From positions 288,001 through 352,000 of the forward strand of contig CM000431.1 of assembly GCA_000165345.1 (NCBI GenBank): DNA of 64,000 bases, in the 5' to 3' direction. The notes beneath the pieces are model-generated. The model ran no database searches. It saw nothing but the letters and a program-made list of their open reading frames with translations, and was not told the DNA's origin. How positions within the stretch are numbered: the stretch's first letter is position 1; every line of letters starts with the position of its first letter. Below, in pieces: positions 11,321 to 14,638 of this stretch. Made by a program: the position numbers and the translations under genes.

Positions 11321-14300
11321 CTATCTAGAACAAGATGTTAGTAATAATTCACCGGAAATGTCTTCATCAAGTTTGGACATGGTCTTCAAAGCATCATCGT
11401 TAGATATGAATTCTTCTTCCTTCACCATAGTATTAGTATGGTTAATTGAAATAAGAGGATACAAAGCGTTCATGATCGAGGAGTAAATAGTAGGATTATG
11501 TGACTCTTCTTGGCTAAGAAGTTGTTTCATATGCCTTCTTTCTTTAGGCTGAGAAAAGCAAGCAGGGCAATTTTCAGTTATGATTGGAAGTTGAGCTTTT
11601 AGAGCAAAGTTTGCAAGATCTTTTTCTCTACAATAAATCATTGGCCTTACTACTCGGACATTATATTCAGGAACAAAATAATTTGCTTTCATTGTATTTA
11701 GCTTTCCATTATTCATCAAAGAAAGCAAAAAGCTTTCACAAATATCATCTACATGTTGTCCTAAAGAAAGTACGTTATATCCATTTTTCTTCATACAAGA
11801 ATATAAAAGTCCCCTCTTCATTCTGGAACAGAAAGCGCAGTAAGATATTTTCTTTTGCTTTTCCTTGACTTTTGCAGCAATATCTACAATTGGGTATGAA
11901 ATAAAATGGTATTTTACTCCTAATGATTCCATATAAGGTATTAATTTTGATGCATCCATTTCGCTTGTTTGAGGATCTACAGTTGCTGCAGATACTTCAA
12001 ATTTTACTGGAGCTACTCTTTGCAAAAATAACAAAATGTGAAGCATTGTTAAGGAATCTTTTCCTCCAGATACTGCAACAAGTACTTTATCTCCTTCTCG
12101 TATCATATCAAATTTCTTTATTGCTTGTCCAACCTGTTTTCTAATTACTCCAAAGTCATTCGGCTTTGGAAATAATCTCACATTTTCTAATGCATTATTC
12201 TTCTTACAACTCTGCTTCTCAAAATCTTCTATTTCCTGCTTTTGTTTCTGCCTAGTTGATTCCTTGGTATTGCCGCCAAATTCAAAAGATTCAGAGTTTG
12301 CATGCATGCAATTTAATGTGGACAGTGTATCCGGTATAGAAATATTATTATTATTATTTTTACGTAATAAATGAATAATGTTTTGAATGTATTTTGGTGT
12401 AATGAACCATCTTAGATTTGATTCAGAAAGGAGTTCAAAGTCATTGATATTGGACAAATCACTTGAGTTTATTGAATTATTGAAGTGTTGGTTATTTTGA
12501 TATATGATTTCTTTAAATGCAGAATCGAGTTTGAATTCTTTTTCATAAGCTTGGTTTGAATGGCTTTTAGAGTTTACAATAATATCTTCTAAATTTCTCA
12601 CGATTTCATTAGCCATTTCAAAATTTCTTTCAAAGATTGGCTCACTATTTGACAATAATTTTGATTCATTATTTAAGGAACTTTTAGAGCCTAATTGGTC
12701 AAACTTATCAAAATAGAATTTTCCAATAGAATCTCCTAACCATCTTCTATGTATTTTATCTAGAGATTTCCATTCTGATCTATGCCTCCAAGTTCCTAGT
12801 GATTCTTCAAAAATATATAAAGGAAGGAATTTCCATCCATGTTTTGCAATCCAAATAACTGATTTTATTATATAATCCACGGTCTCTAAATTGTCGGACC
12901 AATGTAATGAAATTCTAGTGAATCCTGGTCTAACAGATTCTATACCTCTTACAACTAGATCTTGATAAAGCTGTCTAGTTTTTTCTTTGTCAAATCCCAG
13001 TAGCCTTTGTGAATAAGGGCCAGCACAAGAACAACCTCCTCTAGACTGTATGCCAAATAAATCATTCAATAAAGAGCATACAAAGTTATAGTGGAGATAA
13101 AAGTCATTTCCTTCATTATCTAAAATAGTAACTATCTTTGAGTTATTTTCAGAAACAAAGTCTAATTTCACTTGGTTATTTTCAAAATTAAATGGCTTAA
13201 TTAGAAATGAAATTATTGGAAGACTCGTAAGATATTGTCCATTCTTAAGTTCTTGATTTTCAATTATTAATTCTTCAAATCCTAAAATATCAATTTTTGG
13301 TCCATTTTTTTGATTAAATTGACTCCATTCAAAAATTACCCTTTCAAATAATACTCTTTCTTTCGATTGTTTAAGATATTGTGGAACTTTCATATCCAGT
13401 TTCATAACCATTCCTAGACGAGAAATTCCAAGAATATCTGAAGTCCCAGATTCCTCTCTTTCTTCCTTATTTAGTATATATTCGTGGTCATCCATGGACA
13501 CAAAAAAGACACTGTTTCCTCCAGGATCAGATGGTTTCTCAGATAATAGTAATTCTCTCTTAATAATTAAGACTCCAGGAGTAGATGGGCCTCCTAGAAG
13601 TTTATGGGAAGAAAATACACCGACATCTACATATCCTTGAGGATTTAAAGGTGGAGACATATTTGGTCTTGTATGAGGAGCCGTTGCAGCAAAGTCTACA
13701 ATAGTAATTCCTCCATACTGATGTGAAATTGTTGATATTTTTGTATAGTCATTAAGCCTTCCTGAAATATTAGATCCAGCAGAAATTAACAATATTGGAA
13801 TATTTAAAATATTGTTGTTTTTTAACTTGATGAGCTCATCCTTTAGGTTAGGGATATCCACTTCTCCTCTTTTGTTTAAATTCAGATATACTAAACTAAA
13901 TGATAACTTGTACTTTAAATCATTATGTAAGGCTTTAAAACCTTGCGAATATCTCTTAGAATATTCAATAAAAGGTAAGAATAAAGAATGATGAGATGAA
14001 GGATCAACCATAAAAGTGATTCTATAATGATCCATATTGTCTTCATTCTGTGTAGAATCAGATTTACTTTGGAAATCCTTTTCTCTGTGATTTTTATTAA
14101 AATGTCTTCTAAATGCAGCTTCAGTATCATACTGAGTTTCACAACTGACACATTTAAATGACTTCCATCTATCCTGAATAACATTAACAGAAATATCTTT
14201 AAATAAATTCTGGTTAATATAACTTGTTTTAAACTTTTTAATAATGCTAATCCAGTAAGATGCATCCATTATTTTAAGAAACTTGGAAACTGCTCCTGTT

Positions 14301-14638
14301 GAACCTTGTCCAACGAATATGATAGCATCCTCAGGATTTCCACCAATAAACTGCCTTACAGATTCTCTTGCCTCATAAATAAACCAAGTGCTTTGTCTTG
14401 CATTATTAGATGCAATACTATGAGTATTACCATAATATGGAGCAACATCTTCTTTCAATGAATCTTCAATAAATCTCAAACTTCTTCCTGATGCAGTCCA
14501 ATCAGAATATACCATATTTCTAAGACCAAATGGAGTCTTTATTGGACAAAGTTCCCCAATGATGTTTTCCCTAATAAACTCGCAGTACTTTTCAAATTCA
14601 TCGTTTTGTTGATCAACCTGCATAAAGTGATTCTCCAT
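11321..14638 (-). CDS. Fusion protein: NifS-like PLP-dependent cysteine desulfurase domain (N-terminal) and TtcA-type PP-loop tRNA 2-thiocytidine synthetase domain (C-terminal)
   Basis: 1105-aa uninterrupted ORF with an ATG at 14638. The N-terminal part has class-V aminotransferase features (YSDWTASGRSLRFIED...YGNTHS; SSHKLLGGPSTPGVLIIKRELL). The C-terminal ~290 aa match E. coli TtcA almost motif-for-motif: FDMIREGDKVLVAVSGGKDSLTML (PP-loop), CAFCSRMKRGLLY, VRPMIYCREKDLANFA, ENCPACFSQPKERR. A C2H2-like CVSC...HFNKNH sits near aa 160. Confidence 0.7.
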   Translation of the reverse strand: MENHFMQVDQQNDEFEKYCEFIRENIIGELCPIKTPFGLRNMVYSDWTASGRSLRFIEDSLKEDVAPYYGNTHSIASNNARQSTWFIYEARESVRQFIGGNPEDAIIFVGQGSTGAVSKFLKIMDASYWISIIKKFKTSYINQNLFKDISVNVIQDRWKSFKCVSCETQYDTEAAFRRHFNKNHREKDFQSKSDSTQNEDNMDHYRITFMVDPSSHHSLFLPFIEYSKRYSQGFKALHNDLKYKLSFSLVYLNLNKRGEVDIPNLKDELIKLKNNNILNIPILLISAGSNISGRLNDYTKISTISHQYGGITIVDFAATAPHTRPNMSPPLNPQGYVDVGVFSSHKLLGGPSTPGVLIIKRELLLSEKPSDPGGNSVFFVSMDDHEYILNKEEREESGTSDILGISRLGMVMKLDMKVPQYLKQSKERVLFERVIFEWSQFNQKNGPKIDILGFEELIIENQELKNGQYLTSLPIISFLIKPFNFENNQVKLDFVSENNSKIVTILDNEGNDFYLHYNFVCSLLNDLFGIQSRGGCSCAGPYSQRLLGFDKEKTRQLYQDLVVRGIESVRPGFTRISLHWSDNLETVDYIIKSVIWIAKHGWKFLPLYIFEESLGTWRHRSEWKSLDKIHRRWLGDSIGKFYFDKFDQLGSKSSLNNESKLLSNSEPIFERNFEMANEIVRNLEDIIVNSKSHSNQAYEKEFKLDSAFKEIIYQNNQHFNNSINSSDLSNINDFELLSESNLRWFITPKYIQNIIHLLRKNNNNNISIPDTLSTLNCMHANSESFEFGGNTKESTRQKQKQEIEDFEKQSCKKNNALENVRLFPKPNDFGVIRKQVGQAIKKFDMIREGDKVLVAVSGGKDSLTMLHILLFLQRVAPVKFEVSAATVDPQTSEMDASKLIPYMESLGVKYHFISYPIVDIAAKVKEKQKKISYCAFCSRMKRGLLYSCMKKNGYNVLSLGQHVDDICESFLLSLMNNGKLNTMKANYFVPEYNVRVVRPMIYCREKDLANFALKAQLPIITENCPACFSQPKERRHMKQLLSQEESHNPTIYSSIMNALYPLISINHTNTMVKEEEFISNDDALKTMSKLDEDISGELLLTSCSR

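Follow-up and report, generated by a model that had tools for sequence, protein, structure and literature searches.

A Cryptosporidium parvum gene joins a SufS-like desulfurase module to a TtcA-like domain and belongs to a eukaryote-wide family of candidate tRNA-thiolation enzymes

One open reading frame encodes both domains

We analyzed a 64,000-nucleotide stretch of contig CM000431.1 (assembly GCA_000165345.1, positions 288,001 to 352,000), referred to as the window, and focused on a single minus-strand open reading frame (ORF) at 11321..14638. It encodes a 1105-residue protein of Cryptosporidium parvum in which a NifS/SufS-like class-V pyridoxal 5'-phosphate (PLP) domain is followed by a TtcA-like PP-loop domain. 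Coordinates are those of the window, and every feature of the protein described below lies on the minus strand. In the ORF listing of the window the frame has an ATG start, 1105 codons, a terminal stop and no internal stops. The original prediction, made from the letters of the DNA, had described an uninterrupted frame of 1105 codons and gave no strand. The window has a G+C content of 29%, which corresponds to a stop probability of 0.078 per codon, and with this base composition the chance of 1105 codons without a stop is ~1e-39. Its product matches, at 100% identity, a "hypothetical protein" of C. parvum Iowa II that UniRef lists as "C2H2-type domain-containing protein". In addition, the identical 1105-aa protein is called in two independent C. 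parvum assemblies, GCA_048859185.1 and GCA_015245375.1.

Ten other Cryptosporidium cluster representatives were recovered, and all of them are likewise single ORFs (1109-1230 aa) with both Pfam domains. Eight come from named species or genotypes, and their identity to the C. parvum protein lies between 87% and 48%, the lowest value being that of C. andersoni. Complete ORFs in the transcriptome-derived relatives P0012, P0192 and P0193 represent single mRNAs across both domains. We considered an assembly or intron artefact affecting two separate genes, and this is ruled out by the identical protein in two assemblies together with a frame that is kept in all Cryptosporidium species. With these results, we conclude that the architecture, one ORF with two domains, is essentially certain.

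The fusion described in the original prediction was borne out, and both halves have kept their catalytic residues. Pfam scans placed both Aminotran_5 and ATP_bind_3/PP-loop above their cutoffs, the class-V fold was confirmed, the frame is unbroken, and orthologues in other species are fused too. All of the motifs that had been quoted are in the protein: YGNTHS (residues 69-74), CVSC (163-166), HFNKNH (179-184) and SSHKLLGGP (343-351) in the N-terminal half, and SGGKDS (857-862), CAFCSRMKRG (934-943), YCREKD (1002-1007) and ENCPACF (1022-1028) in the C-terminal half.

The N-terminal module has a type II desulfurase fold

Residues 1-625 (12764..14638) are assigned by Pfam, hhalign, AlphaFold and Foldseek to a type II (SufS-like) class-V PLP fold and are predicted to be a cysteine desulfurase. 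The Aminotran_5 match has an E-value of 4.7e-27 (95.4 bits against a cutoff of 21.5). When a profile of 22 family sequences was compared with E. coli SufS by hhalign, SufS residues 22-401 of 406 were aligned with a probability of 99.6 and an E-value of 1.2e-23. An AlphaFold2 model, built from an 82-sequence alignment, has a mean predicted local distance difference test (pLDDT) score of 81.4 and a predicted template modeling score of 0.69, and residues 1-625 are mostly above 90. The top 50 Foldseek matches to the PDB are all type II desulfurases, namely SufS, CsdB, plastid Nfs2 and an encapsulin cargo desulfurase. Their target-normalized template modeling scores are 0.77-0.86, and identity to the solved structures is ~17%.

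The residues expected of a desulfurase could be placed through the hhalign alignment. HHS (residues 216-218, 13985..13993) contains the PLP-site histidines, which correspond to SufS H123/H124 and are nearly invariant in the family alignment. SSHKLLGGP (13586..13612) contains the predicted PLP-binding lysine K346, equivalent to SufS K226, and S343, H345 and K346 are invariant in 22/22 aligned sequences. RGGCSCAG (residues 533-540, 13019..13042) contains R533, which corresponds to SufS R359, and two cysteines. Here RGGCSCA falls on RTGHHCA of SufS, such that C538 is aligned to the catalytic C364 and is the predicted persulfide cysteine, with C536 as a second invariant cysteine; both are invariant in the 22 sequences and in 13 taxa of several supergroups. 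R575 is conserved and aligned to SufS R379.

The module did not reach the NCBIfam cutoffs of the known subfamilies, scoring 75.6 bits against 475.1 for the SufS subfamily and 44.5 against 607 for CsdA. From the alignments and the model, we conclude that the module is SufS-like (type II) and not IscS-type, and that by sequence it is a separate class-V family within the fold, neither SufS nor CsdA proper. This family is marked by the motifs LLNDLFGIQ and RGGC[SAV]CAGP. Stand-alone members of ~475 aa are common in Actinomycetota, Chloroflexota, Myxococcota and Gammaproteobacteria, with at least 578 loci, and eukaryotic stand-alone members occur, for example, in Balamuthia and Mangifera. Some proteins of the RGGCxCA family (P0022, P0023) are joined to a cyclic-nucleotide-binding domain (PF00027) instead of TtcA, and therefore the desulfurase-like module has been recruited into other fusions too.

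The fold is followed by a helical extension at residues 626-765 (12344..12763), recognized by its conservation and predicted helices and carrying the motif L-x-W-F-x-x-P. W744, F745 and P748 are nearly invariant in the 22-sequence alignment, and the motif is also found in the stand-alone Balamuthia homologue. Helices are predicted at residues 669-688, 706-724 and 748-761, with 10-residue blocks reaching a mean pLDDT of 95.

The C-terminal domain belongs to a distinct TtcA-like subfamily

Residues 826-1068 (11435..12163) are identified by NCBIfam, BLASTP and pLDDT (mostly 83-97) as a TtcA-like PP-loop ATP-pyrophosphatase, predicted to be a [4Fe-4S] tRNA C32 2-sulfurtransferase. The Pfam ATP_bind_3/PP-loop match has an E-value of 6.5e-16 (59 bits against a cutoff of 27), and the best NCBIfam model is TtcA (NF007972; E-value 1.3e-63, 215.1 bits, residues 832-1065). 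In a comparison of PP-loop thiolase models, TtcA scored 215 bits versus 65 for TilS, 64 for TtuA and 32 for NcsA.

Against E. coli K-12 TtcA, BLASTP gave 37% identity over 234 residues (E-value 7e-49), or ~35% in a trimmed alignment, with the PP-loop and both CxxC pairs in register. The ATP-binding PP-loop SGGKDS (12053..12070) is invariant in the fused proteins. CAFC (residues 934-937, 11828..11839), invariant in 11 fused proteins, corresponds to C122/C125 of E. coli TtcA, two of the [4Fe-4S] ligands. CPAC (residues 1024-1027, 11558..11569) falls on CNLC of the E. coli enzyme in both BLASTP and the domain alignment, which makes C1024/C1027 the equivalents of C210/C213 and C1027 that of the third essential ligand, numbered C213 in NP_415860.1 and Cys222 by Bouvier et al. 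In E. coli TtcA, the two central cysteines and the second cysteine of the C-terminal pair are essential and bind the [4Fe-4S] cluster (Bouvier et al. 2014, PMC4081106).

The original prediction had described a match to bacterial TtcA that was nearly motif-for-motif. This holds for the motifs, but orthology to E. coli TtcA does not stand: at 37% identity and 215.1 bits the domain falls short of the 272-bit TtcA equivalog cutoff, which E. coli TtcA itself passes with 514 bits. The other fused members tested and the closest bacterial proteins annotated as TtcA score 208-228 bits, all below 272. Short bacterial proteins of this kind are 50-56% identical when the C-terminal 214 residues are used as the query, and the best are 52-55% identical in the domain alignment. 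By these sequence comparisons, the domain is TtcA-like and part of a distinct short 'ENCPACF' subfamily, not a TtcA equivalog. No experimental characterization of this subfamily was found in the literature searched. A thioredoxin gene lies directly upstream of the short ttcA of the gammaproteobacterial type (P0083) in two of the four loci shown.

A C2H2-type finger is inserted in the desulfurase fold

The original prediction had also placed a C2H2-like element inside the N-terminal domain. We found this element, CVSC-x12-H-x4-H, at residues 163-184 (14087..14152), where it is an insertion relative to SufS in the hhalign alignment and a predicted beta-beta-alpha unit in the AlphaFold model. The spacing, C163-x2-C166-x12-H179-x4-H184, is that of a classical C2H2 finger, and the predicted elements (strands at 153-155 and 161-163, helix at 173-188) form a beta-hairpin and a helix with pLDDT values of 65-84. 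When the segment was searched alone against Pfam, the C. parvum finger stayed under the thresholds (zf-C2H2_4, 17.5 versus 27 bits; zf-C2H2_jaz, 16.8 versus 22.6). The Symbiodinium segment exceeded the zf-met cutoff (25.0 versus 21.2 bits) and was just under that of JAZ (21.2 versus 22.6).

Every named alveolate member has the finger: Cryptosporidium, Chromera, Vitrella, Perkinsus, Amoebophrya, Symbiodinium and Stentor. It is absent from the alignment in Octopus, Penaeus, Cimex, Rhodelphis and the stand-alone proteins, and the choanoflagellate Choanoeca perplexa (P0203) has a Cx4C...Hx4H element at the same insertion site (residues ~150-175). This distribution suggests that the finger may be ancestral to the fusion and may have been lost in molluscs and arthropods. 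JAZ-type C2H2 fingers bind double-stranded RNA (dsRNA), and by its resemblance to the zf-met/JAZ type the finger may help to bind tRNA.

The linker is variable and its frame is kept

The two halves are separated by an inter-domain linker at residues 766-825 (12164..12343), which by pLDDT and identity is disordered and evolves fast. The pLDDT is below 50 at residues 769-820, and comparison with C. ryanae and C. andersoni leaves 9-10% identity, but no Cryptosporidium species has lost the frame. In a region-by-region comparison within the genus, the TtcA domain is the best-conserved region (70-94% identity). A frame that is kept across a linker whose sequence has been lost argues that selection maintains the covalent link itself.

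The protein ends in an acidic, low-confidence tail (residues 1069-1105 plus the stop, 11321..11434; pLDDT 37-42) with no hydrophobic anchor. The best hydropathy window of the tail is 0.11 in C. parvum compared with 1.6-2.4 in several dinoflagellate-type homologues. Several dinoflagellate-type fusions (P0012, P0013, P0014, P0016, P0017 and P0184) end in a hydrophobic stretch of ~20 residues (Kyte-Doolittle 1.6-2.4) followed by basic residues, which suggests a membrane tail anchor that the Cryptosporidium proteins do not have.

The fusion is widespread in eukaryotes

We searched 1.84 billion cluster representatives (50% identity) exhaustively with phmmer and obtained 924 matches at E-values of 1e-30 or below. 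Among the best 150 of the 924, ~110 have RxGCxCA together with the PP-loop and CxxC motifs, in the order desulfurase then TtcA. Fused alveolate members include Vitrella, Chromera, Perkinsus, Amoebophrya, Symbiodinium and the ciliate Stentor. Outside the alveolates, the fusion was found in Rhodelphis marinus, in Choanoeca perplexa and in the animals Octopus, Penaeus, Cimex and Nymphon. Homology to animal members is full-length (Octopus P0218, E-value 1.3e-147; Penaeus P0214, 9.1e-149); Nymphon P0262 was also matched, and in these three the matched stretches are spread along the query with the motifs in register. Exactly six cysteines are invariant in 11 fused proteins from several supergroups, and these are the CxC pair and the two CxxC pairs.

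The phylogeny of the TtcA domain that had been proposed as a check was built as a bootstrapped neighbor-joining tree of 184 sequences and 239 columns, rooted on E. coli TtcA. The Cryptosporidium sequences form a clade (bootstrap 100) that groups first with Chromera and Vitrella and next with the other myzozoans. A single cluster holds all 84 fused domains and 13 "stand-alone" fragments that are mostly from short contigs, and 86 bacterial sequences lie outside it. The tree fits vertical descent, and with deep bootstrap values of 10-38 it serves as supporting evidence only.

We found no fusion among the best 80 prokaryotic loci of the N-terminal family by tblastn, where the match never extends past query residue 682, and no TtcA-like sequence in the fetched flanks of these loci (up to 6 kb on each side). 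Two further bacterial neighborhoods showed no desulfurase-ttcA adjacency. A fused bacterial operon as the precursor was therefore rejected on this sample of 80 loci and two neighborhoods, with neither adjacency nor fusion. Because the fusion is shared among eukaryotes and no prokaryotic fusion was found in this sample, it looks like an old eukaryotic invention that was inherited vertically and lost in some lineages; it is plausible that each domain came from bacteria at a deeper point. One bacterial stand-alone homologue, P0155, lies ~4 kb downstream of genes for xanthine-dehydrogenase-type molybdenum-cofactor and flavin adenine dinucleotide-binding subunits. This context recalls the NifS-like domain of molybdenum-cofactor sulfurase, and it could be a coincidence.

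Earlier reports of the fusion

The novelty implied by the original prediction is reduced by two earlier reports. Yang et al. (2022, PMC9420914) listed Toxoplasma gondii TGGT1_294380, with aminotransferase class-V domains and a C-terminal PP-loop, named it TtcA from a domain scan, assigned it to the TtcA/TtuA family and did not study it further. A preprint of 28 September 2026 (bioRxiv 10.64898/2026.09.27.754811) mapped 2-thiocytidine at position 32 (s2C32) on Aplysia tRNA-Lys(UUU), stated by its authors to be the first s2C in a eukaryote. It described an 'IscS-TtcA' fusion of 1177 aa in Aplysia californica (LOC101861551) as the sole TtcA homologue reported in that genome. The same authors found the fusion conserved in molluscs, cited birds and insects as "data not shown", and raised cleavage of the fusion as a possibility. 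They left the catalytic cysteine of the desulfurase unsettled, with Cys448, Cys450 and Cys588 as candidates, and did not mention protists, SufS or a zinc finger.

The Octopus match and its motifs in register place the C. parvum protein in the Aplysia-type family. We conclude that the gene adds a member to a eukaryote-wide fusion family that has been recognized only recently, and that it is neither a novel Rosetta-stone event nor a Cryptosporidium oddity. What is new here is the assignment of the catalytic cysteine, the SufS-type class, the inserted C2H2 finger, the conserved helical extension and the taxonomic map of the fusion. The CxC is universal in the family and its second cysteine aligns with SufS C364, which resolves the candidate catalytic cysteines.

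A model for tRNA thiolation

The conserved catalytic set consists of K346, H216/H217, R533, C538 and R575 in the first half and of SGGKDS, C934, C937 and C1027 in the second. From this set, from the structural model and by analogy with the bacterial enzymes, we consider it reasonably likely that the protein is a bifunctional tRNA-thiolation enzyme, in which a SufS-like desulfurase would feed a TtcA-like [4Fe-4S] sulfurtransferase and the product would be s2C32. The N-terminal module would convert L-cysteine into alanine and leave a persulfide on C538, as its fold and conserved residues suggest. For E. coli TtcA, it was proposed that a desulfurase persulfide hands sulfur to a free iron site of the cluster (Bouvier et al., PMC4081106). 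By analogy, C934, C937 and C1027 of the fusion protein would coordinate a [4Fe-4S] cluster, and its free iron site would receive the sulfur, within the chain or across a dimer, by way of the ~60-residue flexible linker. The PP-loop domain would then act on cytidine 32 of selected cytosolic tRNAs, where it would adenylate C2 and exchange oxygen for sulfur, giving s2C32; this step is proposed because the best family match is TtcA and because of the Aplysia correlation. The zinc finger may assist tRNA binding. Within this model, the uncertainty lies in the s2C32 product and in the direct transfer of sulfur inside the molecule.

The enzyme probably acts in the cytosol. The N-terminus aligns with its homologues from about residue 8, has an acidic start and shows no targeting extension or presequence-like start, which points to a cytosolic location and to a cluster from the cytosolic iron-sulfur cluster assembly pathway. 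In a fuller version of the model, which we offer tentatively, this would be a self-contained cytosolic thiolase, possibly as old as the last eukaryotic common ancestor, in which the SufS-like domain feeds the TtcA cluster via the CxC, mitochondrial or mitosomal NFS1 is bypassed, and the dsRNA-type finger recruits tRNA.

Several points weigh against the bifunctional model. The N-terminal module is far under the SufS cutoff (75.6 versus 475 bits), and the TtcA-like domain and its closest bacterial relatives are below the equivalog cutoff and form a separate subfamily. To our knowledge, the stand-alone relatives of the desulfurase module are uncharacterized. Type II desulfurases normally use a dedicated acceptor, for example SufE or SufU, and no acceptor of the SufE/SufU type is evident for the fusion protein. 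The cytosolic location is suggested by a single trait, the absent N-terminal extension. The link between s2C32 and the fusion in Aplysia is a correlation, and we know of no report of s2C in Cryptosporidium tRNA.

Alternative explanations

The alternative that survives best, although we judge it unlikely, keeps the same architecture and changes the chemistry: instead of making s2C32, the TtcA-like domain would thiolate a uridine, a different position in tRNA or a substrate other than tRNA. It draws on a subfamily that lies as a whole under the TtcA equivalog cutoff, is ~35-37% identical to the E. coli enzyme and has no characterized 'ENCPACF' member in the searched literature, and on the reuse of the same motifs for different tRNA positions across the TtcA/TtuA/NcsA superfamily (PMC5372739). 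However, the TtcA model is far ahead of the others, with 215 bits compared with at most 65 for TtuA, TilS and NcsA, and s2C32 has been mapped in Aplysia, whose sole reported TtcA homologue is a fusion.

Less likely again is a reading in which sulfur does not come from the N-terminal module, which would instead be a selenocysteine lyase, a cysteine sulfinate desulfinase, a desulfhydrase or a scaffold, with sulfur supplied by the mitosomal NFS1/ISC system, as it is by IscS in bacteria. Every desulfurase residue is conserved, including a cysteine at the position of SufS C364 and both substrate-binding arginines, and the structural neighbors (top 50) are exclusively cysteine desulfurases. A lasting fusion to a sulfur-requiring enzyme in more than 100 lineages is also explained most simply by sulfur donation. 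These observations have to be set against family scores far under the SufS, CsdA and SclA cutoffs, the existence of eukaryotic stand-alone paralogues (Balamuthia, Mangifera) and the joining of some relatives to cyclic nucleotide-binding domains. In addition, bacterial stand-alone relatives have no adjoining ttcA in 80 loci (within 6 kb) or in two neighborhoods, and therefore the native function of the module's family appears to be unrelated to TtcA there.

The fusion could also serve co-expression, with the enzymes acting separately after cleavage in the linker or with the TtcA half made from an internal methionine (M778 or M845). We consider this less probable still. There are in-frame methionine codons at 675, 778 and 845, the linker (769-820) is disordered and poorly conserved, and cleavage was raised as possible in the Aplysia preprint (bioRxiv 10.64898/2026.09.27.754811). 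In contrast, M845 is within the TtcA fold, the frame is kept through a linker with nearly no identity left, and both the domain order and the fusion are conserved across supergroups.

Finally, the original prediction had raised a horizontal origin of the TtcA part or the whole gene from bacteria, and although the ~50-55% identity of the short bacterial TtcA-like proteins makes a bacterial origin of the domain deep in eukaryote history plausible, arrival in Cryptosporidium by this route is highly improbable and a Cryptosporidium-specific transfer is effectively refuted: Chromera, Vitrella, Perkinsus, Amoebophrya, Symbiodinium and Stentor carry the fusion with the same finger insertion, animals and Rhodelphis carry it without a finger, and the Choanoeca fusion has a C2H2-like element at the insertion site; the tree, with weak bootstrap, puts Cryptosporidium among myzozoans and the 84 fused domains together; and none of the best 80 prokaryotic loci is fused.

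Genomic neighborhood and annotation

The genes around the fusion have the ordinary compact arrangement of Cryptosporidium, with spacing of ~150-350 bp. A divergent ORF of 467 aa (14985-16388, plus strand) encodes ~50 uninterrupted serines and acidic low-complexity regions. A 258-aa gene at ~8653-9582 (minus strand) has a weak Pfam match to 2OG-FeII_Oxy_2 (AlkB-like dioxygenase) and could be another nucleic-acid modification or repair enzyme near the thiolation gene. Further out are a rhomboid protease gene (~6999-7916, minus strand) and a Vps39-like gene (zf-Vps39_C; ~18071-20638, plus strand). ARAGORN found no tRNA genes in the 64-kb window. A 131-aa C. hominis TU502 fragment (P0025) of the same gene is annotated as 'cytoplasmic protein of ancient origin (92.4 kD) (3D707)', a name that seems to have been copied from the homologous protein record of another organism, possibly C. 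elegans.

Implications

If the model is right, Cryptosporidium and many other eukaryotes make s2C32, a modification that was held to be prokaryotic until the 2026 preprint, and s2C32 would be a widespread, overlooked eukaryotic tRNA modification, parasites included. The pathway would consist of one protein that carries its own cysteine desulfurase, and eukaryotes would own a dedicated extramitochondrial enzyme of this kind. This bears on the sulfur source for cytosolic tRNA thiolation in eukaryotes, especially in parasites with a mitosome. Should mammals not have the enzyme, it would qualify as a candidate target selective for the parasite; birds are mentioned in the Aplysia preprint ("data not shown"). 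C538, the second cysteine of the invariant CxC, is a specific and testable catalytic residue that is absent from the earlier reports.

Comparison with known systems

The N-terminal module shares with SufS, CsdA, CsdB and Nfs2 the fold (template modeling score 0.82-0.86), the PLP lysine, the histidine pair, both arginines and a catalytic cysteine in an R-x-G-x-x-C-A context. Compared with SufS, the C. parvum module has an ~80-residue insertion that holds the zinc finger (150-190), another inserted segment at ~455-510, and an added helical extension of ~140 residues with the WFxxP motif. It also has CxC where SufS has HHC.

TtcA of E. coli and Salmonella was reportedly described by Jager in 2004 as a tRNA cytosine(32) 2-sulfurtransferase. 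The C-terminal domain resembles the E. coli enzyme in SGGKDS, the central CxxC and a C-terminal CxxC that gives the third [4Fe-4S] ligand. The E. coli enzyme differs in being a protein of its own (311 aa) that is supplied with sulfur by a separate IscS, and its third motif is PCNLCGSQ where C. parvum has ENCPACF. Closer in sequence are the short bacterial TtcA-like proteins of ~245-270 aa (for example, Thiothrix and Leucothrix proteins from metagenome-assembled genomes, annotated as TtcA), which have the ENCPACF-type motif and score 212-228 bits on the TtcA model. These proteins, in contrast to that of C. parvum, stand alone, and no desulfurase gene adjoins them in the neighborhood examined.

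Among the fusions, T. gondii TGGT1_294380 is much longer than the C. parvum protein, with its PP-loop at residues 1353-1528, and is alike by its published description. The Aplysia fusion, from an animal in which s2C32 has been measured, is of similar length (1177 versus 1105 aa) and has the same plan: an N-terminal desulfurase of the CsdA/COG0520 type, then a long linker of variable sequence, and a TtcA-like domain at the C-terminus. When compared through the Octopus orthologue, the Aplysia and mollusc fusions share the PLP lysine, the CxC pair, SGGKDS, C-x-F-C and CPAC with C. parvum. The finger is inserted in C. parvum, unlike in the mollusc and arthropod members (Octopus, Penaeus, Cimex), and an extra cysteine conserved in animals and Rhodelphis (Octopus C514) is an asparagine in C. 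parvum. Although the preprint calls the Aplysia domain IscS-like, our analysis finds the module to be SufS-like, with C538 aligned to C364 of SufS.

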